A stretch of 32,000 nucleotides of DNA. It comes from Promethearchaeota archaeon (lineage in GTDB: Archaea; Asgardarchaeota; Heimdallarchaeia; Hodarchaeales; Hodarchaeaceae). Below the pieces are notes generated by a model, which was not told the origin of the DNA, searched no databases, and saw nothing but the letters and a program-made list of their open reading frames with translations. A program made the translations under genes and the position numbers. Positions 4,401 to 25,756 of the stretch are shown here, piece by piece. The stretch lies in the NCBI GenBank assembly GCA_048938105.1, contig JBHLMN010000014.1, positions 111,839-143,838 on the forward strand, given 5' to 3'. The first letter of the stretch is position 1; each line of letters starts with the position of its first letter.

Positions 4401-5144
4401 TTGAATAGGAATGAAATGGGCCTCTGATTCATTAGCAACTGCTTTAGCAATGAGTGTTTTACCTGTTCCTGGGGGTCCGTGTAATAAAACTCCTTTAGGT
4501 GGATCAATTCCCAATTTTTTAAAGAGTTCAGGATGTTTCAAAGGTAATTCAACCATTTCACGAATTCGTTGAATTGCATCTGATAAACCACCAATATCCT
4601 CATAGCTTACCCCTGGCATTCCAGTTTCAATTTCAGAAACTGGTTTTTCTGAAACATTAAGTTTTGTTGTATCAGTGATTAATACAATATCTGTTGGAGT
4701 TGTTGAATTCACAACAAATGGTATAGATCTACCTAGAATAGGGATGAGAACCGTATCATTCTTGGAAACAGGATATCCTAACAATTTTCGTTTTACAAAG
4801 GCTTCAAAACCATAATCGAGGGAAATTTGGCGAGTTGGTGCAATATTGACCGTTTTGGCTACTTTTATCTGGGCTTTTTGGATCCGAACATTCTCTTCTA
4901 ACGATACCTTGGCATTCCTACGAATTATTCCATCCATTCGTACAATACCAGCTCCCTGATCTTCAATGTAAGCAGGCCAAGCGATAGCTCCTGTTTTTTG
5001 CCTTCCTTTAATCTCGACAACGTCACCAGTTGTGATACCAATTTCTCGCATATTGATATCATCCATACGGATTTTTCCCCGTCCCACATCACGTTGTCTC
5101 GCCTCGGCAACCTTTAATACAACTTCCTTTGCCAATATCCTCAA
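1428..5144 (-). CDS. cdc48: CDC48/VCP/p97-type double AAA+ ATPase, interrupted in frame by an intein (731 aa after splicing)
   Basis: It has a CDC48 N-domain ([25 protein letters not shown]). Walker A is GPPGTGKT in D1 and GAPGTGKT in D2. Walker B is IVFIDEID in D1 and LVFFDEID in D2. A second region of homology carries RPGRFDR in both halves. Confidence 0.95.
2847..4367 (-). mobile_element. Intein (507 aa) with LAGLIDADG homing-endonuclease domain inside CDC48 domain D1
   Basis: It starts with Cys (CVAKDSLV, codon 4365-4367) directly after the D1 motif SKFYGE. It ends ...NGLLVHN (Asn codon 2847-2849), followed by the +1 Ser of SEARLREIF. The uninterrupted D2 paralog motif [15 protein letters not shown] fixes the junction. 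Block B is TTPH. The two LAGLIDADG motifs are [10 protein letters not shown] and [11 protein letters not shown]. Blocks F/G are [18 protein letters not shown]. Confidence 0.9.
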
Positions 5145-5307
5145 CTTTATACATTAATTAACAAAGTATTGAACTCTTGTCTAGTTGTCCTGATTCTTGT
5201 TTAAAATTAGTTTCTATTTAATCCTATTAATATTACCTCTAGATGTCAGGAAAATTCTAATGCTTCATCACCCAGAAAATTTTTTAATACCTAAAAACAT
5301 TGTGAAA

Positions 5308-5595
5308 TTAATAATCAATGATTGTTTGAAGTTCAATTTCGCAATTGTCCACTTCTTCCAGAGCTATAAGACGATCCTCAAATTTTTGAAGTGTTTCAGT
5401 TCCTTCATCAGAGTCAGCTGTTTTTACGAAGAGTTTAATGGCATATAAGCCGAAAAAAAGGGGCTCCTCTTCGTTCTTAAGTATTTCTAAATTTAAGTCA
5501 CTTATTAAGTTGGTTTGGACGTGAGAAAGCACCTCATTGCGATTTACTTCTGGGGAAGTGGGAATTATCTTCAATATCGATAGAACATTAGACAT
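5308..5595 (-). CDS. ef1b: translation elongation factor aEF-1 beta
   Basis: The 95-aa size and the sequence pattern (VLSILKIIPTSPEVN..., EPLFFGLYAIKLFV, DSDEGTE, EVDNCEIE) match archaeal EF-1beta. It lies downstream of the usual Zn-ribbon gene. Confidence 0.85.
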   Translation of the reverse strand: MSNVLSILKIIPTSPEVNRNEVLSHVQTNLISDLNLEILKNEEEPLFFGLYAIKLFVKTADSDEGTETLQKFEDRLIALEEVDNCEIELQTIIDY

Positions 5596-5665
5596 AATTG
5601 AGCCTCAATTAGTTACATTTAAGACTAGCAGTTGAATAAACCGCATTATATTAAACAAAATGACA

Positions 5666-5848
5666 TTAAGGTCCTGAGAATCCACAATTAGGACAAGTAT
5701 ATCGGTTCCCCAATTTTCGACATCGTTCACAACGAATTATGGGGATCATTCCACAGGAAGGACAAGGAAATCGTGTTGTTCCATGTTGACTAGGCATAAC
5801 AGCAACTTGACAGGGATTACATCTTTGCATTCGGATGATTTCGCTCAT
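5666..5848 (-). CDS. small Zn-ribbon protein (four CxxC pairs), of the type conserved upstream of aEF-1beta
   Basis: The 60-aa protein carries CNPC, CPSC, CERC and CPNC. Its position immediately upstream of ef1b on the same strand is the conserved archaeal arrangement. Confidence 0.7.
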   Translation of the reverse strand: MSEIIRMQRCNPCQVAVMPSQHGTTRFPCPSCGMIPIIRCERCRKLGNRYTCPNCGFSGP

Positions 5849-6188: not shown

Positions 6189-6617
6189 GTGATTAAATTG
6201 GCAACATATGAACATATCACCATTGATAGAGATGAAGAATCTTCATCTACAGAAAAGATTCAAAAGATATTAGATAGTCTAGGTGCAGTTCAAGGAGTGG
6301 AACAAGCACTTTTAGTAAGCGAAGAAGGATTTCCTATAATGTGTGCACGAACTACACCAATTTCCGAAGAAGTTGAAACATTGGTGTCTGCCATGGTCGC
6401 TGGAATTGTCAGTACTTTTGCTGGGGCTTGTGTTCAACTTAATTTGGGAAAGGAAATAAATTTCATCCATGTTCAGACCCCCCTTGGTTTAGGCTTAATC
6501 TCTAGTGTAGGGAGTACCATTCTCGTATTGATAACAAAACCCAAAGTCAAGCTTGGATTAATGCATTATCTTATTACTTCAACTAGGACTAAAATGTTAA
6601 AAGTGCGGGAATTTTAA
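6189..6617 (+). CDS. Roadblock/LC7 (MglB-like) domain protein
   Basis: The pattern ILDSLGAVQGVEQALLVSEEGFPI...VSAMVAGIVSTFAGA...INFIHVQTPLGLGLISSVGSTILVLI is typical of Roadblock/LC7. The start is GTG or TTG and is uncertain. Confidence 0.7.
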   Translation: MIKLATYEHITIDRDEESSSTEKIQKILDSLGAVQGVEQALLVSEEGFPIMCARTTPISEEVETLVSAMVAGIVSTFAGACVQLNLGKEINFIHVQTPLGLGLISSVGSTILVLITKPKVKLGLMHYLITSTRTKMLKVREF

Positions 6618-6766: not shown

Positions 6767-7228
6767 TTGCCATTATTAGAATCTAATTTAGTGTTACAAT
6801 CCGTTAAATGTGATAAAACAGGAGTCGAACCGATATGCGTTCTTTGTCCTGACTGTGAGGGCTGTGAAACGGCTCTTCGCGAGATTATTAATTTTAAAAA
6901 TGGTCAGTTAATTAGACAAGGCAATTCAGCTATTGCTTCCCTCAAACTTCGCTTCAATGATCCTGTTGAACAGTTTATTTTCGAACGAATTCGAAATGAG
7001 CTATGGCGAGATGCTGGATCGAGATTAAAAGTTATACGAGAACCAGAAGAAGGATACCAAATTTCATTTTTTCTCAATACAGAAATGGTAAAAACTGTAG
7101 AACAACGAGAAACTTTAATTGACTATTGGGAGAAATTCAGTATAAATATGCGGCGAATCTTAACAGATGGAAAAATGGTTATCAATAAATACGTTCGTAG
7201 TCGTGCTGAAGCTTCCCGTTTATCTTAA
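6767..7228 (+). CDS. hypothetical protein with N-terminal Cys cluster
   Basis: The ORF codes for 153 aa and there is no upstream in-frame ATG, so a TTG start is assumed. A Cys cluster CDKTGVEPICVLCPDCEGC suggests metal binding. I recognise no family. Confidence 0.45.
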   Translation: MPLLESNLVLQSVKCDKTGVEPICVLCPDCEGCETALREIINFKNGQLIRQGNSAIASLKLRFNDPVEQFIFERIRNELWRDAGSRLKVIREPEEGYQISFFLNTEMVKTVEQRETLIDYWEKFSINMRRILTDGKMVINKYVRSRAEASRLS

Positions 7229-8623: not shown

Positions 8624-10141
8624 ATGTTGAAATGTCGGTGTAAGCAGAACATGGATTGCCAAAAACGAAAGTTTCACAGGCGAATAGCGATAAGAATATT
8701 TATTATAGTAGGATTTTTATTAATAAGTAATTTTATGCCAATTATGGAAGCAATAGGGAACGGAGAAACAGAAGAAGGTATAATAGCTGTTTTTTATGGT
8801 TCAGCTATGGATAAAAAGTTAAGTCAGGAGATGGTGAGGTTATCAGGGAGAGTAGCTAAGTATTACAACCTCTCTGTTGTCCAAGCTGATTCATCATTTG
8901 CATTTGACAATGAAAGTGTTACAGCCATATGGTGGGTCAACGAATTAGCTTTACCTATAGATTTGACATTTGTGGGCGACATTAGTGAATGGAAACTGAA
9001 TGGGAGAGGCATGTTTGTATTGAATCGTTATTTTAATGAGACTCCCCTCCAAGATTTATCACATCTAGGTATCGCTGCTTATGCCCCAGTTGTATATCCA
9101 CTTAATGGTTCATTCGCAAAACAAGAATTAAGCATAGTGGAGAATCAGTTGCCAATGCTTAATTTGAGTAAAACCATCTTTGATTTTAATGGTAGTACAG
9201 CATGGGTGGAGATGAATAGCCAATCTCAACTGCTAGCAGAGGTTACAACGCCCAAGGTAGACCCTATCTTGGAAGATCTAAAGTCAGGAATTTGGAAGGT
9301 AGACAATCGTGTGATTGTTTGCAGTTTCTCAATTGAAATGAATTTAGAAGTGGAAGAATCCAAGTTTAGGTTACTTGGGGTCGGATTAGAGGCACCAGAA
9401 AATGTGATTGAACTTTTAGGGCAACTTGCACAATTGACAATAGGAACCTTACCTTCAGGCCAAGAAGGAATTTATCCACAACTAGGAGGAGTAGACGAGA
9501 TAGCAGCAATTGGTATCGCTGTGATTGCAACCATTTTATCTGTTATCATATTGATTAAAATAGGAGTCTTTTCTAAAGTCCGCGAAATCGTGGTAGGAGT
9601 TTTTATGAGCCTGGTTTTATTTATAGCTCATATTACATACTCACCACAAAGACGACGAATCAATGAAACTGAACTTCTGGAAAATGAGTTGAGAAATCAA
9701 ATTGTAGAATATCTAGAGCTGAAAGGGGAACAGGGAGCTCATTTACGTGAGATTCAGCGGGAAGTTAAGTGTGGTATTTCTTCCTTGTTATGGCATTTAC
9801 AAGCATTAGATGACTTTAATTTAATAACCCATGAGAAAATTGGGAAGTATCATATTTTCTATTTAGTTGGTGCAAAATCTGTGCAAATATCAGAAATTGC
9901 CTTGGCATTAAAAAGTGATGTAGCGAAAGAACTCTGTCGTGTATTGATAAGGAAAGGAAAACCGTTACCACTGTCAAAAATTTCACAAGAAATCGATGTA
10001 CATCATTCTAGTGTACAACATCATATCAAGAAATTAGTTGAGTTAGGAATCATAATTACACTAAAAGAAAAAAAGCGATCAAAGTATATCATAGGCCCAA
10101 AGCGATTAACATGGTTGAAAAGCCATTTGGAGGCAGCCTAA
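8624..10141 (+). CDS. membrane-anchored protein: N-terminal TM, ~250-aa external domain, two TM helices, then two cytoplasmic winged-helix HTH domains
   Basis: Hydrophobic segments are IAIRIFIIVGFLLISNF, IAAIGIAVIATILSVIILIKIGVF and IVVGVFMSLVLFIAHI. Two ArsR/TrmB-like wHTH-looking repeats follow: RNQIVEYLELKGEQGAHLREIQREVKCGISSLLWHLQALDDFNLI, and AKELCRVLIRKGKPLPLSKISQEIDVHHSSVQHHIKKLVELGII. Confidence 0.65.
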   Translation: MLKCRCKQNMDCQKRKFHRRIAIRIFIIVGFLLISNFMPIMEAIGNGETEEGIIAVFYGSAMDKKLSQEMVRLSGRVAKYYNLSVVQADSSFAFDNESVTAIWWVNELALPIDLTFVGDISEWKLNGRGMFVLNRYFNETPLQDLSHLGIAAYAPVVYPLNGSFAKQELSIVENQLPMLNLSKTIFDFNGSTAWVEMNSQSQLLAEVTTPKVDPILEDLKSGIWKVDNRVIVCSFSIEMNLEVEESKFRLLGVGLEAPENVIELLGQLAQLTIGTLPSGQEGIYPQLGGVDEIAAIGIAVIATILSVIILIKIGVFSKVREIVVGVFMSLVLFIAHITYSPQRRRINETELLENELRNQIVEYLELKGEQGAHLREIQREVKCGISSLLWHLQALDDFNLITHEKIGKYHIFYLVGAKSVQISEIALALKSDVAKELCRVLIRKGKPLPLSKISQEIDVHHSSVQHHIKKLVELGIIITLKEKKRSKYIIGPKRLTWLKSHLEAA

Positions 10142-10186: not shown

Positions 10187-11767
10187 TTGTGTTTAGTATT
10201 AGTTACCTCAGGAAATACTGTATCAGGTATTGGGAGAAGTGAATATCATTTTATACAATTAGATTCATTTTTTGAAAAAAACCTGTTTGGAGTAAGGTTT
10301 GATTATAATCCTAGAGTTTCTAGTGGTCAACCATTACGAATAATCAATGATTTGCTAGATCAATCATGGGATCCAAATACTACTGACCCAGACCTCAAAG
10401 AAGATAATATTCTATCATTAGTAGGATACGAAGCTCAAGACATCAGTTCAGCATTTCTGGCTTTAGAACAGGTGAAACGGACACAAGACATTCTAATTGA
10501 TTCGATAGAATGGCAATCTGCAGCCCCCTTTGTTAAGTATTTACATCATTTCTCTCTTCCAACAGGAGAGGATGTCCTATTAGCTCAGGATTTTCTTGGG
10601 ATGGCATTAACGGTAAATGGAAGCGGATTTAATCCTATTGATTATCAGCTTGGATATGCTAATGTACCATTAGAATTTTTAGAGTTTTTAATTCCAAATG
10701 ATAAGGGATATTCCTTTAATTTGTCAGTAGAAACTTCCATAATGATCCAAGAATCTGTTAACGAGCTACAAATCGATTTAACATTTTCTAATCTGACCTT
10801 TCTATTCCAAACTAGTGGTGTTGCTTTAGATAATTTTGGATTGGAGATTGCAGAACATTTTATGATTGTTCAGTTTGATTACATATCTTTCTCCCTGACT
10901 TTGAGAAAATACTCACATTATGGGACTTCTGGAGTAGAGACTCTGTCAGAGATTTCAATAGGAAATGTAATGAATTTGATCATTAATGAGGAATTACCAC
11001 GCGAGCAAAATTGGTTAAATGCCCTTAATTACACGATACAAGAGGATTTCAAGGATTTAATCCCAATTAACGAAACATTCTCCTGGTATCAGGGCCCAGA
11101 TATATCAGAACGGTTACAAATGTTTTCTAATCTTTCTTTCTCCCTCATCACAGCTCAAAACATTGGTGTATTAAACGGAACCCAAGTGGTAAATGATCTT
11201 CAGGTAGTTATAGATGATCAGAACAGAACAAAAGCAGAATTATCTCAGTTGGAGTTTACTGTAAAAGATGGAATTTCAGTTATTCATGATGAACGAATAT
11301 TATTCTCAACCCAAGTTAAAGGCCGGAATTTTGCAATAATTCAGGAAGATGGTATAAATGAAATCTCCCTGGTTCCAATGGAAGCGCGAGTAATTGCTTT
11401 GAACCAACAAACTGGGTTTGCAGACAATCTTTTATTCCTACAAGAAACATCATTACTAAAAGAACTGATTGTTGAATGTATTAAACGCTTCATTGCAAAT
11501 CCAGAGATTTCTACATTAGGGATCAGTGAAGTATTAAATAAAGTAGGTTTAGATCTGACTTCAGCACAATATATACAAGATTTTCAACTAGTAGAATGGT
11601 CAGGGATGAGTTTCAAAATTAACTTAATACAATATGCAGTTAAAACCGCTCCATCTTCTACCATTAAATCAAAAATGAGTCAAGTCACACTCATTCCAAC
11701 CGTATCAGTATTATTGGGGCTTCTAATTCTGGTAGTCATTGTTAAACGAGGAAATAGGGGAAAATGA
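10187..11767 (+). CDS. exported protein with C-terminal TM anchor; distant paralog of the next gene
   Basis: The C-terminus TLIPTVSVLLGLLILVVIVKRGNRGK is a TM segment plus a basic tail. Several blocks align with the 12098 protein (listed under the paralog finding, 10187-13789). The 5' end is uncertain. The TTG start gives a poor signal peptide, and an SD-preceded ATG at 10174 lies in the +1 frame. Confidence 0.6.
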   Translation: MCLVLVTSGNTVSGIGRSEYHFIQLDSFFEKNLFGVRFDYNPRVSSGQPLRIINDLLDQSWDPNTTDPDLKEDNILSLVGYEAQDISSAFLALEQVKRTQDILIDSIEWQSAAPFVKYLHHFSLPTGEDVLLAQDFLGMALTVNGSGFNPIDYQLGYANVPLEFLEFLIPNDKGYSFNLSVETSIMIQESVNELQIDLTFSNLTFLFQTSGVALDNFGLEIAEHFMIVQFDYISFSLTLRKYSHYGTSGVETLSEISIGNVMNLIINEELPREQNWLNALNYTIQEDFKDLIPINETFSWYQGPDISERLQMFSNLSFSLITAQNIGVLNGTQVVNDLQVVIDDQNRTKAELSQLEFTVKDGISVIHDERILFSTQVKGRNFAIIQEDGINEISLVPMEARVIALNQQTGFADNLLFLQETSLLKELIVECIKRFIANPEISTLGISEVLNKVGLDLTSAQYIQDFQLVEWSGMSFKINLIQYAVKTAPSSTIKSKMSQVTLIPTVSVLLGLLILVVIVKRGNRGK

Positions 11768-12097: not shown

Positions 12098-13789
12098 ATG
12101 AAAAAACAAAAAGTATTGATTCTACAGCTGGCATTGTCTACAATTGCTATCTTAGCTAGTTCGATAATTTTTTCAGCTGCTAATACAACGGCTCCTACTG
12201 AATTCGTTCTCTCTCATGACTTTAGTGAAGATTACTTCCATGAAACAATCGATGTTCCACTTAAACCATATTTCCCTGATGATAACGCCTCGGTCTTTCT
12301 ATCCTATATTAATGCATCAGGTATTGAAGTTGGTTACACTGGCTTAGAAAAAGTTGAGATGGATCTTAAACTCAGTGATATTTTTAGATCTTCAGCCATG
12401 GCTGTACTAGAGGATCTTGGTTTTCCAGATGAACCGATCGCAACTGTAAATGCAACAACACCATTTCAATTCCTGCTCGAACATTGGACAACAACAGAAG
12501 ATGGTTCCACTTCAGAGATGTTTGCTGCAAATGATTTTGTAGCGCTTCTCGCATACTCTACTACTCCATCTGAAAAAACCTTGACTCCTGATGACACAAT
12601 CTACGTTGGATACACATTAGCTCTAGATCAACTAACTAATGGTATAAACGCACTAATAACCGATCCTTCTCATGGTTACGATGCTATTCCGAAATATGAC
12701 GTTGAAACCTCATTTGAAGTTGTAGACAAAAACGAAATTCATTTTGGTATTAATTACACCAATATGGTGACATTTTGGCAAAAAGCAGACGAGAGCGCTT
12801 ATGACCCAGTTAAAGACATTCCAAAAGCATTATTAAAAGATAAAATAGATAAATTAAAAGCAATGATTGCAGGGTTTCAGGCAGCAACAGTATTTGACTA
12901 TCTAGCTTTTAACTACAACGTAACATGGTCCACGTCAACTGAAGGTGAAGTTACAGAAGTTAAAACTGACATTGTTACCCATTACAATATTGGGGAAGTC
13001 AGCTGGTTATTCACATTAGACTCTGGATCTCCGATTGACTCAAAATATACTGATTCATTCAAGGACTCAATAACTTATGAAATTGATTTACCTGGTGCTG
13101 GTTTGAACATTCTAGGAACACCTATTCCTGACAAACTTTCTCATGAGTTTATAGTTGAAGCTTATCCATTTGATGATGCACAAGCCCGTATAAATGATGC
13201 AAACGGATTTGGTTTCGCTGTAATGACACAGACTAATTCTTATGGATTGAATTTCAAGGATGCCATCTGGGATGATGGAATGCTGACTATCTCGGCTGAA
13301 GATGACTTTGAAACTTCTTTTGTTGATAAAAACACCTACAAATTAAAGGGTGTTGAAGAGCTTGGCTTCGATGCTGATCTTGACCGCAATGTTACTTTTC
13401 TTGCTAAATACCATTCAGATATGACTCATGTAACAACTCCCCTAGTCAAAGGATATTTGGATATTTCTCACGAACTCTATCACGACTTTATCAAGTGGAT
13501 ACTCGAAAATGGATTTGGTTATCACAAAACCTATGGCTACAGAGCTGAGGAGGCAAATTACTTGACCCTCACTCAGTTTGGTGATTGGGTTGGTGGAGAA
13601 ATCGTCCACGATCCCGCGTATTCCGCCGTTGCAGCGATGGCTGCTGTTGAGTCAAGTGCTTCATCATCATCAAAGACCAGTGGGCCTCCACCAACTAGTA
13701 CCACTGGTGGTGTTCCTGGATTCGAGATTCTCATTGTGTTATTTACCCTTCCTCCTCTGTATACAATGCACCGTAAGCGACATCATTAA
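12098..13789 (+). CDS. secreted cell-surface (S-layer-like) protein with PGF-CTERM sorting signal
   Basis: A GGTGA ribosome-binding site precedes the ATG. The signal peptide is MKKQKVLILQLALSTIAILASSIIFSAA. A Ser/Thr/Pro linker SSASSSSKTSGPPPTSTTGG is followed by PGF (codons from 13715), the hydrophobic stretch EILIVLFTLPPLYTM and the basic tail HRKRHH. This is the archaeosortase-type PGF-CTERM architecture. Confidence 0.75.
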   Translation: MKKQKVLILQLALSTIAILASSIIFSAANTTAPTEFVLSHDFSEDYFHETIDVPLKPYFPDDNASVFLSYINASGIEVGYTGLEKVEMDLKLSDIFRSSAMAVLEDLGFPDEPIATVNATTPFQFLLEHWTTTEDGSTSEMFAANDFVALLAYSTTPSEKTLTPDDTIYVGYTLALDQLTNGINALITDPSHGYDAIPKYDVETSFEVVDKNEIHFGINYTNMVTFWQKADESAYDPVKDIPKALLKDKIDKLKAMIAGFQAATVFDYLAFNYNVTWSTSTEGEVTEVKTDIVTHYNIGEVSWLFTLDSGSPIDSKYTDSFKDSITYEIDLPGAGLNILGTPIPDKLSHEFIVEAYPFDDAQARINDANGFGFAVMTQTNSYGLNFKDAIWDDGMLTISAEDDFETSFVDKNTYKLKGVEELGFDADLDRNVTFLAKYHSDMTHVTTPLVKGYLDISHELYHDFIKWILENGFGYHKTYGYRAEEANYLTLTQFGDWVGGEIVHDPAYSAVAAMAAVESSASSSSKTSGPPPTSTTGGVPGFEILIVLFTLPPLYTMHRKRHH

Positions 13790-13832
13790 TCTTTTTTTTT
13801 CTTTTTTTTCTTTTTTTTCCCTCTTTTCTTTG
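13790..13832 (+). terminator. oligo-T archaeal terminator, three tandem C(T)8-9 units
   Basis: Directly after the stop codon the sequence reads t cttttttttt cttttttttc ttttttttcc ctcttttctt tg. Archaeal RNA polymerase terminates at oligo-T tracts. Confidence 0.55.
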
Positions 13833-14076: not shown

Positions 14077-16662
14077 ATGGTATCAATTGCCTTATTAATG
14101 GATCCAATTAACCTTTTTGCCTCGTTACTTCTCACGTTCTCCCCCATAATAATTTTATTCTTTCCTTATCTTATTACACGGCGAAAAGATGAAAATATTT
14201 TTGCAGTCATCTTTAATCGTGCTTATATTGGCTTTATTGTTTTTTATTTGGCATATTTCATCTTTCCCAGTATCTTAAACGCTTTTGTGCCACACCCGAC
14301 TCAATATATGGATCAGGAGTATTATCCTGTTTCAGGTACAGGTGTGTGGGAAGGAGACTATACTACTATATGGGATTCAGCTGCGAGTCCTGTACAAGCT
14401 ACAATTCCAGGAATGCCCATGTTAGTTCGCTATCTGTTTCAGCATTTTGTAAATTCAATTGTTAATTATTTATATTATCCAATCATTATTCTAGCGTTTG
14501 TTTTCGGTATTTCCCCAATTGTTTCAATGATAATACTGTTATACCAGACTTGGAGCGATAAACGTAACGAAAAGAAACCTCTCAGACGGCTAATCAAGCA
14601 AAATAATGAGGAACTTAAAATTCTTTTGAACAGGCAAAGAGCTGCCAGCGAAGACGAGCTTCAAGAGATTGGCCGAGAAATTAATGAGTTAGAAAAAGAT
14701 ATTCTTAGTTTAAAGCAGCAAACAGAAGAAGTCCGAAGTGTTACTCAACGATTAAAAGAGATTCAGTTTGAAATGGAAGTTTCACCGTTTCAAGAAATCA
14801 GAAAACGGGTGAAAGAAAAAGAGTGGGCAAATGAAAGGGAGTTATTAAAAGTACTCATTGCCATCCTTCCCATTACACTATTTTTACTTATGACGATCTT
14901 ACGTCTCCTAGGAGAAACCGAAAATCCCAGCTTACTTCAAGGTACTTCAATGGGTTGGTTTTTAGAGATATTCTTTGCATACATTGCAACACTTGTATTT
15001 AGTGTGTACCTGATTAAAGCAAGTAACTTGTCTCGTAAAGGTAAATTCCTAGGAAATCAACTATACATTGCAATGGTTCAGAGCTTATCGACTGTAGGGG
15101 CAGTTACATCAGGATTAGCTGTTATTCTCTTCTTATTCGAGTATTTCGATCAGATTTTTGTTATTTCCTATTTCGTGGTTTACTTCATTATGGTTTCGAT
15201 ATTCTTTGTACTTTTTCTGGATATTTTTGAACCTTTTTCGATTTATTTGCTAATAAAGCTCATCGAATCATTTAAAAATCTTAAATTGACAGTTAAAAGA
15301 ATTGATCGTACTAATATCCTAAAATCAACCGCTGTGGGAATTGTTATTGGTTTTCTTCTTGCAATTGGGTTTCTCGTTTACCGTGTTATTCTCACAGGTA
15401 TAGCCCGTAATATTGAAACTGTTCAATATGATACCTTCTTTTGGATAACTCAAAATTGCATTAGCTTTCTTATCTGTGCTGCGTTGATCTTATTCTTTAG
15501 AAGATGGAATTGGAGTGTATTTGGAACAACACTAGTGATATTTGTGTCAATATCTACTGTTAGTTTCTTGGTCTTTGGCTGGTTTGATCTAAAATGGTAC
15601 ACGCTATTAGGTTTACCCACCTCGATTTTCCGGATTGGTGGTGTTCCTTTAATTCCTCCATTTATCACTCTCACTTCCATCTTTGCTGGTTTGACTCAGG
15701 GGTGGGAACTAAAGTGGCTAACTTCTGTCTGGAAAGAAGGTGTCTTCAATGAGGTACAATTTATAATCCCTGAATTACGTCAGATTCCTGTGATCTGGCA
15801 AGGGCAGGGAGGAACCTTCCTCGGAATTCTATCTATTCCCTATAACCTTTTACATCCTTTTGCAATAATATTAACCTATGGTGCGATTTTATTCTTAGCT
15901 CGGCGAAAATTTCATGTAAAAACACAGAAAAGTGACAAAGAAGGGGAAGAAAAAATCCAATTTAGGTCAATTTTTTCTGAAATGGGAAGATTGCCTAATT
16001 TAGGTGAATTACGGAATAAATCGGATATAATTCTGGTTGGAACGACACCTAGTGATGATCCTGAAGTGAGGCAAAAGGTAGATGAAGCCTGGGTATCAAT
16101 CGAGAATGGACAACAGCTGCGTGATGCTATCACTGGGACACTTAAACCTTTGAATGAAATAGATATGCCTATTACTGAGATCTATCGAATTTTAGATGAA
16201 TTAACTTTTGATATTGAAGTTCCTTTTAATCAAATACTTACTCTATTGCATAGAGAATTCTCATACTCCTTTGAAGAAGTAACTATTGATTCGCTCCATA
16301 TAATGATGCTTGATGGGCGTGCTGTGTTATCACACACTTTTGCAACGGAGTCACTAGTCGAGCCAGCGTTAGTAGCTGGTCTTTTCTCAGCCATTACCTC
16401 TTTCGCGAAAGAAGCAGTGCGGAGTGAACAGTTATTAAAGACTATAGATCATGGTGACGTGGTTCTAACCATAGAATATGCAAAATGGGTTTTTGCTGCA
16501 ATTTTTGCAGATAGTACCTCTACCGAGTTGAGAAAAAAGCTTAACGAATTTTTAACAAACTTTGAAGAAAGATATGCTAAGACTCTTCCGACTTGGTTAG
16601 GAGATCTTGATATTTTTAAACAGGATATAGAAATTATAGATGAAGTTTTCTCTCCTGGGTAG
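14077..16662 (+). CDS. large polytopic membrane protein (861 aa) with an internal coiled-coil loop and a C-terminal cytoplasmic longin/Roadblock-like domain
   Basis: There are many hydrophobic helices through aa ~1-620. A charged heptad-like loop reads NNEELKILLNRQRAASEDELQEIGREINELEKDILSLKQQTEEV. The soluble C-terminal ~240 aa ends in a domain (nt 16279-16659) that is also present in the adjacent HerA-like ATPase. Confidence 0.75.
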   Translation: MVSIALLMDPINLFASLLLTFSPIIILFFPYLITRRKDENIFAVIFNRAYIGFIVFYLAYFIFPSILNAFVPHPTQYMDQEYYPVSGTGVWEGDYTTIWDSAASPVQATIPGMPMLVRYLFQHFVNSIVNYLYYPIIILAFVFGISPIVSMIILLYQTWSDKRNEKKPLRRLIKQNNEELKILLNRQRAASEDELQEIGREINELEKDILSLKQQTEEVRSVTQRLKEIQFEMEVSPFQEIRKRVKEKEWANERELLKVLIAILPITLFLLMTILRLLGETENPSLLQGTSMGWFLEIFFAYIATLVFSVYLIKASNLSRKGKFLGNQLYIAMVQSLSTVGAVTSGLAVILFLFEYFDQIFVISYFVVYFIMVSIFFVLFLDIFEPFSIYLLIKLIESFKNLKLTVKRIDRTNILKSTAVGIVIGFLLAIGFLVYRVILTGIARNIETVQYDTFFWITQNCISFLICAALILFFRRWNWSVFGTTLVIFVSISTVSFLVFGWFDLKWYTLLGLPTSIFRIGGVPLIPPFITLTSIFAGLTQGWELKWLTSVWKEGVFNEVQFIIPELRQIPVIWQGQGGTFLGILSIPYNLLHPFAIILTYGAILFLARRKFHVKTQKSDKEGEEKIQFRSIFSEMGRLPNLGELRNKSDIILVGTTPSDDPEVRQKVDEAWVSIENGQQLRDAITGTLKPLNEIDMPITEIYRILDELTFDIEVPFNQILTLLHREFSYSFEEVTIDSLHIMMLDGRAVLSHTFATESLVEPALVAGLFSAITSFAKEAVRSEQLLKTIDHGDVVLTIEYAKWVFAAIFADSTSTELRKKLNEFLTNFEERYAKTLPTWLGDLDIFKQDIEIIDEVFSPG

Positions 16663-16742
16663 AGAACATTATTAGTCCTAACATAAGTTTGAGTCCATTG
16701 GTTGTATATATTCAATATATTGCCTAAAATGCGTTTAAAGTT

Positions 16743-19367
16743 TTATTCACCCTCTCCAATGATAAAACAATAATCACCAGTTTTTAATTGGGTAATTGAG
16801 CAAATGATTGTTGTAAGATCTGTCTTTAGGGTTATTTTTAAACCATTTAAAGGATTTTTGGCTTTTGAATGGAATATAAATCCTTTTTGAGTCATTAAAG
16901 TGGCCCAATGTAATAAATCTGATTTGGAGTAAGCTTTTATACGGATTGAAGTAGTTTTTATTCTTAATTCTGATTCAAATATTAGGTCTCGTTGTAGAAT
17001 ATCTGATATAAGAGATTCGGGGAGAGAATTTGTTTGAATTTCTGGAATTAGTGTAATAAACCAATCGATATCTAGTTCTCCAATTTCTAAAGGTTCCTCA
17101 CCAGGAACATATTCTGATACTTCAGGAAATATTTGTTCATCAGCTACGGCTTCTTCAACCTTTAGTTGTTGCAGATCTGCTGGAGGTAGTGTAGAGATAA
17201 GCAGTGGTAGTTTTCGGTTTTGATCTACAAGTACAAGAACCTTATCGTGCAAATACGAGATAATTACTTCAGTAATTTCTCGATAATTGTAATCTGAATC
17301 CAGAAGACACTGATTAACGATCTCTAAAGCAAAAAGTCCTTCGTTTATAGCAAGCTGGTCTATTTGTTTATAAATAATCTCGTACAAAACAGGATGAGGA
17401 ATTTCGCCTTTATATGATCGATTGATTTGGAGAGGAGTTATTAAGGATAAACCTAGATGAAGATCAAGTATTTGTATTGTTGGAGCAAAATCATCAATAA
17501 CACCAACGAATTCTTCCAGAGTGGTTCGGAACTCTGTTTCGAAGGCGTAAGAGAAATTCCTGATTCGCCGTTTTAGGATGTTCAGGTACTTTGGAGTCCG
17601 ATCGAGGATAACTGCAGCAACAGAGTTGGTTCCCTCAACCGTGACAATTTTAAAAGCACGATCTCCAATTTCTTCAGTAAATATTCGTAAAATTGTACGT
17701 TCTTTAACGAGATCTTCTTTCAGTTCACTAAAAAGCCCTGAAATAGCGCTCAGAAATCCTGAAACCAGTTGAGGATCTATTTTCAGCATGGTTATTCCAA
17801 AATCAAAGATACAAATTCCAGTTTTTTTGTGTAGAATTAAAATGTGTTTACATGCAAGTAGATTTGTTAAATCTTTGTGACTAAACGCTTCAATCTCTGA
17901 AGAATCCCGCGTCATTGTACTAAACTCATCTTTAGGAAGACTAGAAACAACTTTTAACTCTATTTTCTCCATTCCTCCTCTATATCGCGGGATAGTATTA
18001 GGCATTTCATCTTCCTGAGGATCGATATGTTTAGATAAACGGGGACGTACACGAATTTTAATAGGTTCTTGGCTCCCTCTTTGTAGTCCTACAATTAATG
18101 CTTCTCCCCTAATAAGATGAGGTAATCTTGAAACAATTTCAGTGCTTATTCCTTCCATCAAGCGAATTTTATTAATGTCCTTATCAGATCTTATCCTTAG
18201 CGCAATTAATGTGTTCATGTTTGCTATAATGTTATCTGGAAAATCTGCAGGTCGTTGAGAAATGAGAATCTCATAAATACCAAATTTCCGTCCCTCTCGA
18301 GCAATTTTTGTAATTATCTCATTTGTAGAGGCAAAACGATGTGCTTCTTCAATGACAAGTATAATTTCATTCTCACGCGCTAGATCCCCATGAATTTTCT
18401 TCTCAAATACTAAAGTAAGTATTTCATTAACTAAAAGATTACTTTTACGTTCATCAAGAAATTGATCTAACCGAACAATCGAGATCTGTCCTGGGCGGAT
18501 AAAGGTCTCCAAATCTAGTTCTTCTTCAAAAAGGTTCAGATTTTTCAGGGAAAATATCTTTGAAATTAAAGTTTCTCGTGTAGAACTATGGATATTTGAA
18601 TTTTGTATCAACGAGATTAAGTCTTCTAATAAGATTGGTTTTTCGATAATATTTGATAAAGAATTTTCTTGTGCAGCCGTTAAATCGGTTAATCTACGTA
18701 GTCGTGGCAAATCGAAGCTTTTTCCCAGACTTAAGGTATCTTTTTCAAAAAGAAGGATACTGTCTTGAAAGCCACGAGGCGAGTAGTCCTCATAATCTAG
18801 TTTTTCGATCTCTGTACCATCATTTGGTTGAGCTAATCCCCAGTATTCGTTATGGATATCGAATAACAAGACAGATGCAGTATCAAACTTCATAAGAATT
18901 TCTTCTAATAATACACCAACACTGTACGATTTTCCAGCACCTGTACTAGCCACACAGAGTACATGTCTTTCCAAAAATTTTGGTGATATGAGAAAAGGGT
19001 CTGTATTATTATCAAAAGTAATTACGTCCCCTAAATAAACCCCTTGGTCACCACGGTACGAGATAATCTTCGATACTAGTCCTTTAGGTGGATGTTGGAT
19101 TTGTGCTTGGGAAGATATTGGAAACTTGCAGGGTGAAAGTGAAAAATCTTCAGAGTTGATTTCTCCAAGAATTGTGGCTGTGCCTTTTATTTCTTCTCCC
19201 TTGGTTTGGATTAAATTCGTTACTTGGGCCAGATACTGTTTTTGTGGAGTTTTTTTAGATTCAGTAATCAAAATAAAATCCTGTTCATAAATCGATGTTT
19301 TTGTCGTGTCTATGTTAAAAGAAATTTCAGATGTTGAGGACTTCAATACTTCCATTGTGCGTGGCAA
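16743..19367 (-). CDS. HerA/FtsK-superfamily (DUF87-type) ATPase with a ~400-aa C-terminal extension containing a longin/Roadblock-like domain
   Basis: The N-terminal region looks like a HAS barrel. Walker A is VASTGAGKSYSV. FDIHNEY corresponds to the HerA DxHGEY motif. Walker B is ILVIEEAHRF. The HerA signature is AREGRKFGIYEILISQRPADF. Aa ~506-635 (nt 17463-17852) align with the C-terminus of the 14077 protein. Confidence 0.8.
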   Translation of the reverse strand: MPRTMEVLKSSTSEISFNIDTTKTSIYEQDFILITESKKTPQKQYLAQVTNLIQTKGEEIKGTATILGEINSEDFSLSPCKFPISSQAQIQHPPKGLVSKIISYRGDQGVYLGDVITFDNNTDPFLISPKFLERHVLCVASTGAGKSYSVGVLLEEILMKFDTASVLLFDIHNEYWGLAQPNDGTEIEKLDYEDYSPRGFQDSILLFEKDTLSLGKSFDLPRLRRLTDLTAAQENSLSNIIEKPILLEDLISLIQNSNIHSSTRETLISKIFSLKNLNLFEEELDLETFIRPGQISIVRLDQFLDERKSNLLVNEILTLVFEKKIHGDLARENEIILVIEEAHRFASTNEIITKIAREGRKFGIYEILISQRPADFPDNIIANMNTLIALRIRSDKDINKIRLMEGISTEIVSRLPHLIRGEALIVGLQRGSQEPIKIRVRPRLSKHIDPQEDEMPNTIPRYRGGMEKIELKVVSSLPKDEFSTMTRDSSEIEAFSHKDLTNLLACKHILILHKKTGICIFDFGITMLKIDPQLVSGFLSAISGLFSELKEDLVKERTILRIFTEEIGDRAFKIVTVEGTNSVAAVILDRTPKYLNILKRRIRNFSYAFETEFRTTLEEFVGVIDDFAPTIQILDLHLGLSLITPLQINRSYKGEIPHPVLYEIIYKQIDQLAINEGLFALEIVNQCLLDSDYNYREITEVIISYLHDKVLVLVDQNRKLPLLISTLPPADLQQLKVEEAVADEQIFPEVSEYVPGEEPLEIGELDIDWFITLIPEIQTNSLPESLISDILQRDLIFESELRIKTTSIRIKAYSKSDLLHWATLMTQKGFIFHSKAKNPLNGLKITLKTDLTTIICSITQLKTGDYCFIIGEGE

Positions 19368-22471: not shown

Positions 22472-23383
22472 ATGGTATTCTCATCGATCGCTCAAAGTTA
22501 TTTCGATGAATTTCCATTTCGACATCGAGCTCGTCGGAAACCATCTTCAGGATATTTTTTCCTGTCCCACGCTCACTCTGACCATACATCTGGTCTTAAA
22601 TCGAGTTTAACTGATCCTGATGCTATGATAGTTTGTTCTAAGGAGACAGAAGCAGTTATAAGGGTACTTTATGGTATTCCCCAAGAAAAATGTCTTATTA
22701 TAAACCCCAATCAATCCTTGGACTTCGATCATTTTATTGTTCACGCTTTGGATGCCAATCATTGTTTGGGTAGTATAATTTATGTAATTGAATCAAAAGA
22801 AGGATTGAAAGAGGTATATACAGGTGATTTTAGATTAGGATCCCCCATTTTCGATGAACTTAGTTTGATTAAAGGAGCTAATCATCTCTGGGTTGACTAT
22901 ACTTATGGGAAAGACCCGATTTTTAAATTTCCAACAAGAGAAGAATTAATTTCACAAATTATCTCTTTAATCTTATCAGAAGAGAATTATCCTTCAAGAG
23001 ATGTATGGATTGCTGCATATCAAATCGGTAAAGAACTTCTCCTTAAGACAATTAGCGAAGCGTTGAAAATAAAAATTTGGGCTTCAGATCAGAAAGTCTC
23101 AATCTACAAGGAAATTGGAGGAGAATGGGATATTTTCACTAATGATACAGATTCGAGAGTGTTTGTTGGAAGTCGTCGAATGGTAGAGGGATTATATGGA
23201 ATTAAAAAACAATATCAAACAAAAATGTCAGATGCTTTACGAATCTCACCTACCGGTTGGTCAGCACGCTTACAAAAAAAACACTTAGACGTGCATTTTT
23301 TCCCTTACTCTGATCATTGTTCATATTCAGAGGTTCATAAATTCATTGAGTTAGCCACAGCAGAAAGAATCACAAAAATCTGA
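22472..23383 (+). CDS. SNM1/PSO2/Artemis-family (DRMBL) metallo-beta-lactamase/beta-CASP DNA nuclease
   Basis: A GGAGGT site precedes the ATG. The motifs FFLSHAHSDHTSGL (HxHxDH), LDANHCLGS, YTGDFR, LWVDYTYG, SPTGWS and FPYSDHCSYSEV each parallel the SNM1A/Artemis motifs as I recall them: THFHSDHYAGL, DANHCPGA, HTGDFR, LDTTYC, PTGWT and PYSEHSSY. Confidence 0.85.
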   Translation: MVFSSIAQSYFDEFPFRHRARRKPSSGYFFLSHAHSDHTSGLKSSLTDPDAMIVCSKETEAVIRVLYGIPQEKCLIINPNQSLDFDHFIVHALDANHCLGSIIYVIESKEGLKEVYTGDFRLGSPIFDELSLIKGANHLWVDYTYGKDPIFKFPTREELISQIISLILSEENYPSRDVWIAAYQIGKELLLKTISEALKIKIWASDQKVSIYKEIGGEWDIFTNDTDSRVFVGSRRMVEGLYGIKKQYQTKMSDALRISPTGWSARLQKKHLDVHFFPYSDHCSYSEVHKFIELATAERITKI

Positions 23384-23444
23384 GGACTCAGAAAAAAGGC
23401 ATAAAGGTAATTTAAAATTCTCCCAAATTAATTATTAAATATGA

Positions 23445-25658
23445 ATGGAACCTACATTGAGTGTAATAAATCTTCGAGACATACGCGGAATCGGCCCATC
23501 AGTTGAAGAAAAACTGAAAACATATTTTGGGAGCGAAATGGCTGCTCTTACGGCATTACGTGAATCTAGGATAGCAGAAATATCCTCTATTGAGGGAATT
23601 GGGGAAAGGTTTGCCTTGAGTCTGTGCCGTAACCTGCATTTTCAGGAAACTGGAGAACAAATACAGAATTTTCTTAAAACAGAAGATGCTGTTTTGCTTT
23701 ACAATCGAACAACAGATATAATTTCAAAATTTGCAAATACTATTTATTCTAGATCAAAATTATTTCTATTTTTTCCATTACCAATTTCAGCTTTGGAAAA
23801 AATCAGGAAAAGGCAAGAAATTACTCAACGCGCACAAAAATTGGTCACTTTAATAAAAAAATCTCCTTATTCTTTCAAAGATTACAATAGATTACTCAGA
23901 AATCTCTCTCCTCTTAAAGATCAAGTTAACCAGCTAGATACAGCGTCACGAATTATTGCGACTCCTGATAGGCAGATTTATGAAGAGCTAATAACCAATG
24001 AAGTTGGATATCATTGTGAAATCCTCTTGATTGAGGAATCTGAACAGGTTTCAGAAATCATTTCAGGTTATGATGAAGTTATTTGGATTGGTTCGGATAT
24101 TTTAGTTGAAGAAGGGTTGTCTAACACAATTACAATTTCCGAGAGTCAACGTAATGATCTAATTCAGATAATCCCAGAAAAAATGCTTAGCTTCTTCGCA
24201 CGTAATAAGAAAGCCCTTGAGTCAATTTCTGGATTATCTCAATTACTTAAGTCAATCCCTCCTGTGGAGCTAAAAACGATTCTTGGGGAGATAAACCTTG
24301 AAATGCTTATACAAATGGGCAATGAGCTTGTAAATTTAGATGAATCAGGTGAACCAACCCAAAAGTTTAACGAGGAATATTCACGTCTTTTAATGGCAGA
24401 GCAAACCTTTGAAAATAAATTAAGTGAAGTTTTACTTGGATTAAATGAAGAACTGGAGCAGAAGCTTCAGGATACAACTGTTCACTTAGAAGGAGAAAAG
24501 ATTCTTGCCCTTCTCAAAGGGATGACCGAAGAGGATCATAGATATTCAGGAGATAGCGGAAAAGCAGAATTACGTGAATATTTAGATGATGAATTATATT
24601 TGGCAATTGAAGAAATAATCACTAAAGCAGAAGAAAAACTCATTAAAGAATTAGATTTAAGAAGCGATGAAACTGACTATATTGTTGGTATTTTTCCTAG
24701 AGAATTGAGATATCCCGTTGACCCTGTTGATGATGTTGTCAATAGGATTAAAACTTATCTACGGCAAAGAAGAGCAATAAAATCTTTTGAATTGAAGGTT
24801 ACATTAGCTAAATCTCTCAAACAATTTGAGGATGTAGCTAAAACGGCTTTAAATTACATGTTGGAATTGGATTACCATTTAATGATTGGGAGGTTTGCCC
24901 TTTCTTATAAATTGGCCTTACCACGGCTTGTAGAAGGACACGGTACAGGATTATTAGTAGAAGAAGGTCGAAATCTGTTTCTAATTCAACAAGAAAAGCG
25001 AGGAGTTTTGAATGTGGAACCTGTATCTTATGCAGTGGGAGAAATTGGAAAGATTGCTGGTAATGTCGATGGTGAAAGAATTATTCTTCTATCAGGAGCT
25101 AATAGTGGAGGAAAAACGACATTAATTGTATCAATTGCAGTAATGGTGATTCTTGGACAAATGGGCCTTCCCATTCCATGTAAAAAAGCAATCATAGGAG
25201 GTTTCAAGGAATTACACTATTATCGTAAGGCCTCTGGACAGATGGATGCTGGTGCGTTTGAAACTACACTCCAGACATTGTCTCAAATGATTATGAGTCC
25301 TAATTCGAGATTGGTGTTAGCTGACGAAATGGAAAGTATGTCAGAACCAGGTGCGTCAGCTCGGGTAATTGCAGCATTTTTAGATCTATTAGGCCGTTCC
25401 CCTGACTCTGTAGGAGTATTTGTGACTCATCTAGCACAATTGATAGCCAAATATAGTAAAGAAAAATTACGAATTGATGGAATTGAAGCACAAGGGCTTT
25501 CATCAGATTTAGAGTTAATTGTGAACAGAACTCCGATTTATTATAAATATGCAAAATCAACTCCAGAATTAATTGTTCGCAGATTACAACAAGTTTCAAA
25601 AGGCAAGGAAAAGGAGATATATTCCTACATTTTAGAGGCTTTTGATTATCAAGAATGA
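23445..25658 (+). CDS. MutS-family ATPase (domain V) with N-terminal helix-hairpin-helix motifs and long helical middle region; no Smr or mismatch-binding domain seen
   Basis: The HhH-like motifs are IRGIGPSVEEKL and IEGIGERFALSL. The MutS-type Walker A is LLSGANSGGKTTLIVSIAVMVILGQMGLPIPC, the Walker B is LVLADEMESMSEPG, and VFVTHLAQL corresponds to MutS THxxEL. It lies 61 nt downstream of the SNM1-like gene on the same strand. Confidence 0.8.
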   Translation: MEPTLSVINLRDIRGIGPSVEEKLKTYFGSEMAALTALRESRIAEISSIEGIGERFALSLCRNLHFQETGEQIQNFLKTEDAVLLYNRTTDIISKFANTIYSRSKLFLFFPLPISALEKIRKRQEITQRAQKLVTLIKKSPYSFKDYNRLLRNLSPLKDQVNQLDTASRIIATPDRQIYEELITNEVGYHCEILLIEESEQVSEIISGYDEVIWIGSDILVEEGLSNTITISESQRNDLIQIIPEKMLSFFARNKKALESISGLSQLLKSIPPVELKTILGEINLEMLIQMGNELVNLDESGEPTQKFNEEYSRLLMAEQTFENKLSEVLLGLNEELEQKLQDTTVHLEGEKILALLKGMTEEDHRYSGDSGKAELREYLDDELYLAIEEIITKAEEKLIKELDLRSDETDYIVGIFPRELRYPVDPVDDVVNRIKTYLRQRRAIKSFELKVTLAKSLKQFEDVAKTALNYMLELDYHLMIGRFALSYKLALPRLVEGHGTGLLVEEGRNLFLIQQEKRGVLNVEPVSYAVGEIGKIAGNVDGERIILLSGANSGGKTTLIVSIAVMVILGQMGLPIPCKKAIIGGFKELHYYRKASGQMDAGAFETTLQTLSQMIMSPNSRLVLADEMESMSEPGASARVIAAFLDLLGRSPDSVGVFVTHLAQLIAKYSKEKLRIDGIEAQGLSSDLELIVNRTPIYYKYAKSTPELIVRRLQQVSKGKEKEIYSYILEAFDYQE

Positions 25659-25682
25659 TCTTTATATTACAAACAATGCTAG

Positions 25683-25756
25683 TGGGCCGGGACGGATTTG
25701 AACCATCGATTTGCTCCGTGTGAGGGAGCCGTCATACCGAGCTAGACCACCGGCCC
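25683..25756 (-). tRNA. tRNA-Val (anticodon CAC)
   Basis: The reverse complement reads GGGCCGG TG GTCT AGCTCGGTAT GAC G GCTCC CTCACAC GGAGC AAATC GATGG TTCAAAT CCGTC CCGGCCC A. The acceptor, anticodon and T stems pair fully, T33 and A37 are present, and the T-loop is TTCAAAT. CCA is not encoded. Confidence 0.9.

Follow-up and report, generated by a model that had tools for sequence, protein, structure and literature searches.

We examined a 32,000-nucleotide stretch of contig JBHLMN010000014.1 (hereafter the window) from a Promethearchaeota archaeon, in which two convergent genes encode an 861-amino-acid (aa) membrane protein (nucleotides (nt) 14077–16662, + strand, from the open reading frame (ORF) list) and a soluble ATPase of the HerA/FtsK superfamily (nt 16743–19367, − strand, 874 aa as listed, assigned from the ORF list, Pfam and orthologues). 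These genes form a conserved two-gene module of Heimdall-group Asgard archaea, present in Hodarchaeales and in some deeper relatives, and each product carries a domain that is predicted to adopt the longin fold. We tentatively favour, at a probability slightly short of even, a functional partnership in which the ATPase acts as a lineage-specific accessory motor. The source is itself a Heimdall-group Asgard archaeon, and the closest relatives of the membrane protein (64–80% identity) are annotated as Hodarchaeales, Hodarchaeota or Heimdallarchaeota.

All HerA-longin ATPases with enough flanking sequence (approximately 26 loci from at least three deeply diverged lineages) are convergent to a gene of the membrane family, and among the GTDB species representatives, approximately 20 of the Hodarchaeales type have the two genes both convergent and adjacent. 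The deeply diverged loci are more informative on pairing than those of Hodarchaeales. At L029, L030 and L034 the pair is still convergent and adjacent, the ATPase of L034 being truncated where the contig ends. In the divergent lineages that keep the pair, the membrane protein is 34–39% identical; at L029, where it is 34% and the ATPase 25% identical, the genes on the far side of the membrane gene have changed. A metagenome scan seeded with the longin and C-terminal region of the ATPase recovered six further ATPase loci, and the membrane gene is adjacent in all four of them that have enough flank. In the window, the stop codons of the two genes are separated by a spacer of 80 nt (16663–16742), which measures approximately 20–130 nt at orthologous loci.

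The shared longin-like domain

The initial annotation of this DNA had aligned by eye the end of the membrane protein with an internal part of the ATPase and proposed a common domain. Both ORFs and both segments (aa 735–861 of the membrane protein, nt 16279–16659; aa 506–635 of the ATPase, nt 17463–17852) map exactly where it had placed them, and our comparisons show that they are one homologous domain. Whole-protein BLASTP of the membrane protein against the ATPase gave 36 bits (E = 7e-6, 29% identity over 107 aa), and such cross-matches recur among orthologues (e.g., the membrane-protein domain of the window against the ATPase of L018, E = 2.8e-8). When the two families were aligned separately and compared with hhalign, the probability was 97.5% (E = 5.6e-12, 106 aligned columns). 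Invariant or nearly invariant positions in the joint alignment of both families include P-x-L-V-x-G-x-x-x-A-I-x-x-x-x-x-E, G-D, F-E and G-x-x-x-x-F. A hidden Markov model (HMM) of the domain identified two copies only in the window: the C-terminal domain of the membrane protein (+ strand), which was delimited by structure modelling, Foldseek and conservation, and the internal domain of the ATPase (aa 506–640, nt 17448–17852, − strand; E = 1e-41), which is also recognised by BLASTP and hhalign. Local duplication of the ATPase domain from the neighbouring gene was considered and rejected because the ATPase copy is closer to the domains of other carriers.

The AlphaFold2 (AF2) model of aa 734–861 of the membrane protein (predicted local distance difference test score (pLDDT) 85.8, predicted template-modelling score (pTM) 0.80) has the order β-β-α-β-β-β-α-α, with strands (E) and helices (H) at E4–11, E16–21, H30–47, E56–58, E63–68, E72–78, H83–99 and H111–125, and the same elements were recovered in the full-length model. 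It shows the features by which longin domains are recognised, namely a five-stranded sheet that carries one helix on a single face, and a pair of helices at the C-terminus. In a Foldseek search of the PDB with this model, the top 24 matches were all longin domains, including the N-terminal domains of AP-1/2/3/4 σ and μ, COPI ζ/δ, Sec22b, VAMP7, TRAPP Bet5/Trs23 and Mon1-Ccz1. Scores against these eukaryotic longins ranged from E = 1e-4 to 4e-3 with TM-scores of 0.6–0.74 (e.g., AP2 sigma, E = 1e-4; Sec22b, TM-score 0.69; VAMP7 longin, TM-score 0.74 and rmsd 2.6 Å). Roadblock structures (MglB, LAMTOR and Asgard Roadblock) ranked lower, with TM-scores of 0.47–0.53 over 93–101 columns. The Roadblock/LC7 identity was rejected since there is no PF03259 match and the model has no N-terminal helix and ends in two C-terminal helices; the Roadblock order for comparison is a-b-b-a-b-b-b with an N-terminal helix.

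Neither segment has a Pfam match at E up to 10, longin families (Longin, Clat_adaptor_s, Sybindin, Sedlin) included, and NCBIfam and PADLOC likewise yielded nothing usable for the segments. When the domain profile was run against PDB sequences, no longin was returned, the top match being a spurious one to multicystatin. Judged from the model, the domain is a longin whose tie to known longins lies at the level of fold and not of sequence family. The class proposed initially, longin/AP-sigma/Roadblock, is thus narrowed to longin by element order and Foldseek, and its Roadblock part is dropped on the lower TM-scores and the wrong order; of the searches suggested at that time, the structural one returned longin domains and the profile one matched neither a Pfam longin family nor Robl_LC7.

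In Asgard archaea, longin domains rank as eukaryotic signature proteins, and the origin of membrane trafficking has been connected with them. They act as homo- or heterodimeric platforms on membranes (PMC10933270). Eukaryotic longins share the b-b-a-b-b-b-a-a order of the Asgard domain and are found in coat, SNARE or guanine nucleotide exchange factor (GEF) subunits, whereas the Asgard domain forms part of the same polypeptide as a P-loop ATPase or a membrane protein, the latter either polytopic or single-pass. Longin platforms often bind a small GTPase; no GTPase partner was identified here.

An exhaustive HMM search over 1.84 billion representatives of clusters formed at 50% identity placed the domain in 4,477 proteins at E ≤ 1e-3 and in 902 at E ≤ 1e-10, the named carriers belonging to several Asgard lineages and Methanomassiliicoccales. 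Among the top 150 matches, 33 are members of the membrane family and 110 are other carriers, 86 of which have at least one transmembrane (TM) helix. In membrane carriers the domain typically starts 30–50 residues past a TM helix, which is either the last helix of proteins with 4–11 TM helices (including MFS transporters) or, in receptor-like proteins that have large N-terminal parts, the only one. Some carriers continue into KaiC-like ATPase domains (PF06745, DUF835, DUF7504), and others hold winged helices of the PCI/DDRGK type. Word-indexed homologue searches with the C-terminal half of the ATPase and with the domain profile recovered only fragments of the same two families, so that the wide distribution emerged from the exhaustive HMM search alone. 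The domain family is therefore very large and archaeal, lacks a Pfam model, is chiefly juxtamembrane on the cytoplasmic side, and is recurrently combined with ring-forming P-loop ATPases of the KaiC-like and HerA-like types. At the metagenome loci L041–L047, very long ORFs that are truncated by the contig ends encode proteins of 1,300 to more than 2,200 aa. These have one TM helix, approximately 50–70 residues ahead of the longin-like domain, a layout that points to receptor-like proteins of the cell surface whose longin tail is cytoplasmic.

Asgard archaea have approximately 130 Roadblock/longin families among the Asgard clusters of orthologous genes (asCOGs), together with many lineage-specific longin fusions (bioRxiv 10.1101/2020.10.19.343400; PMC10933270). 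The "longin" and "NPRL2-like longin" asCOG families are likewise abundant in Asgard archaea and occur in many lineage-specific fusions, and the domain studied here probably belongs among them. In the literature searched, we found no description of longin fusions to a HerA-like ATPase and to an 11-TM family, or of a conserved pair of such genes. What is new here is the HerA-longin and 11-TM-longin fusions as a conserved pair; longin fusions, and HerA enzymes with a membrane partner, are of known kinds. The locus reveals one large, uncurated longin-fold family, chiefly membrane-proximal and cytoplasmic, that is tied to many membrane proteins and ring ATPases. The pair is a tangible example, from the lineage closest to eukaryotes, of two such proteins whose proposed contact can be tested using the isolated domains.

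The ATPase and the membrane protein

The description of the two products as a HerA-like ATPase and a polytopic membrane protein agrees with our results. The ATPase matches Pfam DUF87/HerA (E = 6e-18), and its best PDB sequence matches are HerA chains (E = 8e-24). Its core (aa 108–447, nt 18027–19046, − strand), delimited by the orthologue alignment and by Pfam and PADLOC coverage, includes a Walker A motif ASTGAGKS (aa 140–147, nt 18927–18950, − strand) and a Walker B motif IEEAHR (aa 339–344, nt 18336–18353, − strand). These motifs, together with REGRKFG and SQRP, are invariant in an alignment of 8 orthologues with 50–86% identity. The ATPase thus appears to be catalytically intact and is predicted to be an active enzyme under selection. 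Translation probably starts at the ATG at nt 19355, giving a product of 870 aa, because orthologues start with ME[VL][IL]KSST. No TM helix was found in the orthologous ATPase ORFs.

The DUF87/HerA core, Walker A/B motifs and SQRP are common to the ATPase and the HerA helicase of double-strand break repair. The ATPase differs in an additional C-terminal extension of 430 aa, in which the longin domain is followed by a helical and then a terminal module. Its C-terminal region (aa 641–874, nt 16746–17447, − strand), which is conserved in divergent ATPases, has no Pfam match; in it, a variable acidic linker joins the helical module to a conserved terminal module of the alpha/beta type. This architecture is kept at 24–28% identity over that region, including at L029 and L030. 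Matches to the NCBIfam HerA, anti-phage HerA and CedD models all fall far under the equivalog cut-offs (for the HerA models NF040819 / NF040937, 110 bits against 970 and 81 bits against 800). No NurA, Mre11 or Rad50 gene was found near the ATPase in the window, in agreement with the earlier observation that NurA and Sir2 genes are missing from its surroundings. Its neighbours encode a Pyr_redox_2 oxidoreductase, PTPS, an MptE-like protein, the membrane protein and exported proteins.

The membrane family is restricted to Asgard archaea (65 homologues, all Asgard). The full-length AF2 model, built from 68 diverse sequences, has pLDDT 86.6 and pTM 0.87. Hydropathy, the positive-inside rule and the model together delimit a TM core (aa 1–606, nt 14077–15894, + strand) of approximately 11 TM helices with the N-terminus outside. 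The loops rich in K/R all lie on one side together with the 250-residue C-terminal tail; by this topology rule, a prediction and not a measurement, and by the model, the longin domain at the end of this tail should face the cytoplasm, which is the side that the initial annotation needed for contact with a soluble ATPase. In the full-length model, a weak hydrophobic stretch at residues 520–538 is not a TM helix, and residues 545–572 form a β-hairpin in the would-be external loop. The TM core has conserved intramembrane acidic and aromatic motifs (GWFLEIFF, FLDIFEPFS and RRWNWS).

Two further parts of the protein are assigned to the cytoplasm. Between TM3 and TM4, loop charge and the model indicate a charged, coiled-coil-like helical hairpin (aa 157–252, nt 14545–14832, + strand) with 22 K+R and 22 D+E, built in the model from long helices H115–189 and H192–217; it is gapped in the divergent members P0057, P0061, P0064 and P0065. 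Between the TM core and the longin domain, the model places a linker module (aa 610–734, nt 15905–16278, + strand) of beta strands and three helices, which is possibly winged-helix-like and has no Pfam match. The longin domain is the most conserved part of the membrane family. When the full-length model was compared with the PDB by Foldseek, the longin domain alone aligned; therefore, the TM core is without a recognisable relative among solved structures, and the protein stands as a confidently modelled 11-TM protein without a structural relative in the PDB. Searches of Pfam, NCBIfam and PADLOC with the membrane protein gave nothing usable, with no PADLOC match. For the orthologues P0018, P0031 and P0032, a precomputed Pfam match to PF28006.1 is recorded, which may be a recently created family that covers part of the membrane protein.

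Interpretation of the gene pair

A partnership between the ATPase and the membrane protein is the best single explanation because the ATPase always occurs with the membrane gene, because it is a soluble carrier of a juxtamembrane domain, and because fusions of TM helix, longin-like domain and ring ATPase exist. The ATPase would be the accessory component since it is always beside the membrane gene, while many lineages have the membrane gene without an adjacent ATPase. Presumably hexameric like other HerA-family enzymes, it would be brought to the cytoplasmic side of the membrane protein and there power or gate the activity of that protein. The most economical contact would be longin–longin pairing, as in AP sigma/mu, TRAPP Bet5/Trs23 and Mon1/Ccz1, and by analogy with these pairs we infer that the ATPase may dock to the membrane protein in this manner. 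If true, such docking would represent a new way to couple a HerA/FtsK-type motor to a membrane partner. A DNA substrate is suggested solely by the family of the ATPase, as nothing else at the locus points to DNA; it is equally plausible that the pair acts on another polymer or handles the exported surface proteins encoded nearby. The more specific picture of an Asgard membrane machine, in which a HerA-type hexamer, docked by a longin heterodimer onto an 11-TM protein of new fold, translocates a polymer or the Heimdall-CTERM proteins encoded alongside, or assembles them at the surface, and in which the longin fold was ancestrally a juxtamembrane adaptor to ring ATPases, is in our estimate doubtful. 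If it were true, the juxtamembrane longin adaptor would be a prokaryotic precursor of the longin pairs that organise eukaryotic coat, tether and GEF complexes.

Several observations weigh against the partnership. Within the Hodarchaeales genomes, a 20-kb block of unrelated genes (g03–g17; Roadblock, ARPC4-like, HIT, pyridine nucleotide-disulphide oxidoreductase, PTPS, MptE-like, DRMBL nuclease and MutS-like) is equally collinear, so the adjacency of the pair in this order is weak evidence, and the PTPS and MptE-like genes are still beside the ATPase in L029 and L030. In two species a 467-aa B12-binding radical-SAM gene (L004, nt 4343–5746; L016, nt 10290–11693) lies in the spacer, which is thereby occupied by a 1.6-kb gene, and the pair thus tolerates interruption. 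The two genes are convergent and in separate transcription units, a third unit being the upstream exported-protein gene g09; this division follows from an oligo-T tract after the g09 stop codon (T-rich tract at nt 13790–13830) and from an AT-rich stretch of 287 nt upstream of the membrane gene. Genes of the membrane family occur without an adjacent ATPase (absence being judged at the locus only) in L024, L027 (Lokiarchaeum ossiferum), L028, L031/L033 and L032/L022, and the longin domain stays the best-conserved part of the membrane protein in such lineages; hence the domain does not exist to dock the ATPase. Its presence in 4,477 clusters and in many architectures means that the domain is not exclusive to the two proteins. 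The ATPase copy scores 59–89 bits against copies of unrelated carriers and at most 44 bits against the membrane family, which suggests that the two copies are members of a big family and not a matched pair by descent. As they are not nearest relatives, domain sharing is no specific signature, which weakens the initial proposal that the shared domain may dock one protein onto the other. Its expectation that the genes co-occur elsewhere was borne out in that the pair recurs in other genomes, deeply diverged ones included, but the membrane gene often stands without an adjacent ATPase.

Much of this also speaks for the main and substantial rival, which we consider somewhat unlikely: that the two genes are independent neighbours in an inherited gene order, each with a promiscuous adaptor domain that binds something else, be it its own second copy (as a homodimer), a small GTPase or another longin/Roadblock protein. 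The wide distribution of the domain, the distant relationship of the two copies, the collinear housekeeping block with its PTPS and MptE-like genes, and the many membrane-family lineages without an adjacent ATPase all fit this rival, and potential binding targets abound, with a Roadblock gene 7.5 kb upstream and dozens of longin/Roadblock proteins and small GTPases in Asgard genomes (PMC10933270; bioRxiv 10.1101/2020.10.19.343400). Against it, the ATPase was never met away from the membrane gene, even at 25–34% identity and with the flanks partly changed, and a soluble carrier of an otherwise juxtamembrane domain calls for explanation. HerA/FtsK-family enzymes are known as translocases, not switches, which weighs against a signalling module in which the membrane protein senses, the longin-like domain relays, and the HerA-like ATPase serves as an ATP-driven switch or hub. 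We regard such a module as unlikely: no output domain was identified, and an 11-TM core with conserved intramembrane acidic residues is more transporter- or enzyme-like than sensor-like. It would nevertheless accord with the position of the domain behind the TM helix in large-ectodomain, receptor-like proteins, several of which continue into KaiC-like domains, with the helical, possibly winged-helix modules that flank the domain in both proteins, and with the many longin fusions to two-component signalling domains in Asgard archaea (Liu et al., bioRxiv 10.1101/2020.10.19.343400). The membrane-anchored KaiC-like ATPases, proposed as signal-transduction hubs, unite a TM helix, a longin-like domain and a KaiC-like RecA-fold ATPase in one polypeptide; the present locus splits this architecture over two proteins, and its ATPase is a separate soluble protein on the HerA/FtsK branch.

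Import or export of DNA by a system similar to Ced or to a type IV secretion system (T4SS), in which the membrane protein would form the channel and the ATPase would pump the DNA, is very improbable. CedB and CedD are HerA-clade ATPases that work with the polytopic CedA/CedE (PMC11868833), so the Ced system of Sulfolobales likewise pairs a HerA-clade ATPase with a polytopic membrane protein; in addition, NCBIfam CedD matches aa 5–427 of the ATPase in one stretch (E = 1.8e-17), and a NurA partner is missing. This match reaches 63 bits against a cut-off of 600, however, and the Asgard ATPase is soluble, without the N-terminal TM anchor, so that coupling here would run via the shared longin domain. 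The membrane protein is unrelated to CedA/VirB6 and unlike any solved channel, and no pilin, CedA1/A2 or Ups-like genes were found near the pair in the window. Membership in Ced/T4SS was therefore rejected on partner genes, score cut-offs and context. Least credible of all is a role in HerA-based anti-phage defence or in a mobile element. PADLOC HerA (E = 1.7e-37) and mad8 (E = 1.6e-23) do match the ATPase, in the core only, but no Sir2, DUF4297, nuclease effector or other mad gene is adjacent to it, the membrane protein has no PADLOC match, the G+C content of the window (approximately 35%) shows no compositional break, and the stable housekeeping synteny across approximately 20 species is unlike a defence island. 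Sir2-HerA, DUF4297-HerA and MADS systems were rejected on the missing effector and this collinearity.

Neighbouring genes

Genes for exported proteins lie upstream of the membrane gene, as had been noticed before, which is supported by their sequences and by a weak Heimdall-CTERM match. The nearest, g09 (563 aa, nt 12098–13789, + strand), encodes an exported or surface protein with a signal peptide and a PGF/Heimdall-CTERM-like anchor, as judged from its sequence and NCBIfam. Its C-terminus (...GGVPGFEILIVLF...HRKRHH) resembles a PGF-CTERM anchor, and the match to NCBIfam Heimdall-CTERM is weak (E = 0.005, 17 bits, cut-off 24). For g08 and g09, Pfam, NCBIfam and PADLOC yielded nothing usable, and neither PDB sequence searches nor a comparison of g08 with g09 gave a match. 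In tblastn searches, homologues of g09 (24–27% identity) adjoin the membrane gene in the divergent lineages L030–L033. A small GTPase gene of the Arf/Ras-like type occurs approximately 4 kb upstream of the membrane gene at L031 (nt 3772–4299) and L033 (nt 2157–2684), which represent a soil lineage without an adjacent ATPase.

A 505-aa protein (nt 8624–10141, + strand) has an exported N-terminal part, TM helices and two C-terminal winged helix-turn-helix (HTH) domains (HTH_20 and HVO_0163_N), and thus looks like a membrane-bound transcription regulator; in L032 the membrane gene adjoins a homologue that is 47% identical to it over 199 aa in the C-terminal HTH region of this regulator-like protein. 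Farther upstream, a Roadblock/LC7 protein of 142 aa (nt 6189–6617, + strand; PF03259, E = 1.4e-9) keeps its syntenic position at the Hodarchaeales loci and is a possible partner of longin/Roadblock-type domains. It is followed by a 153-aa protein (nt 6767–7228, + strand), also syntenic, that matches ARPC4, the 20-kDa subunit of the Arp2/3 complex (PF05856, E = 6e-8); ARPC4-like proteins are among the eukaryotic signature proteins of Asgard archaea. On the other side, 3–6 kb past the ATPase, a DRMBL-type metallo-beta-lactamase nuclease and a MutS-domain-V protein are encoded (nt 22472–25658, + strand), and these genes are collinear within Hodarchaeales and absent at the divergent loci L029 and L030. 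The sole tRNA gene of the window, tRNA-Val (CAC), is located at nt 25682–25756 on the − strand.

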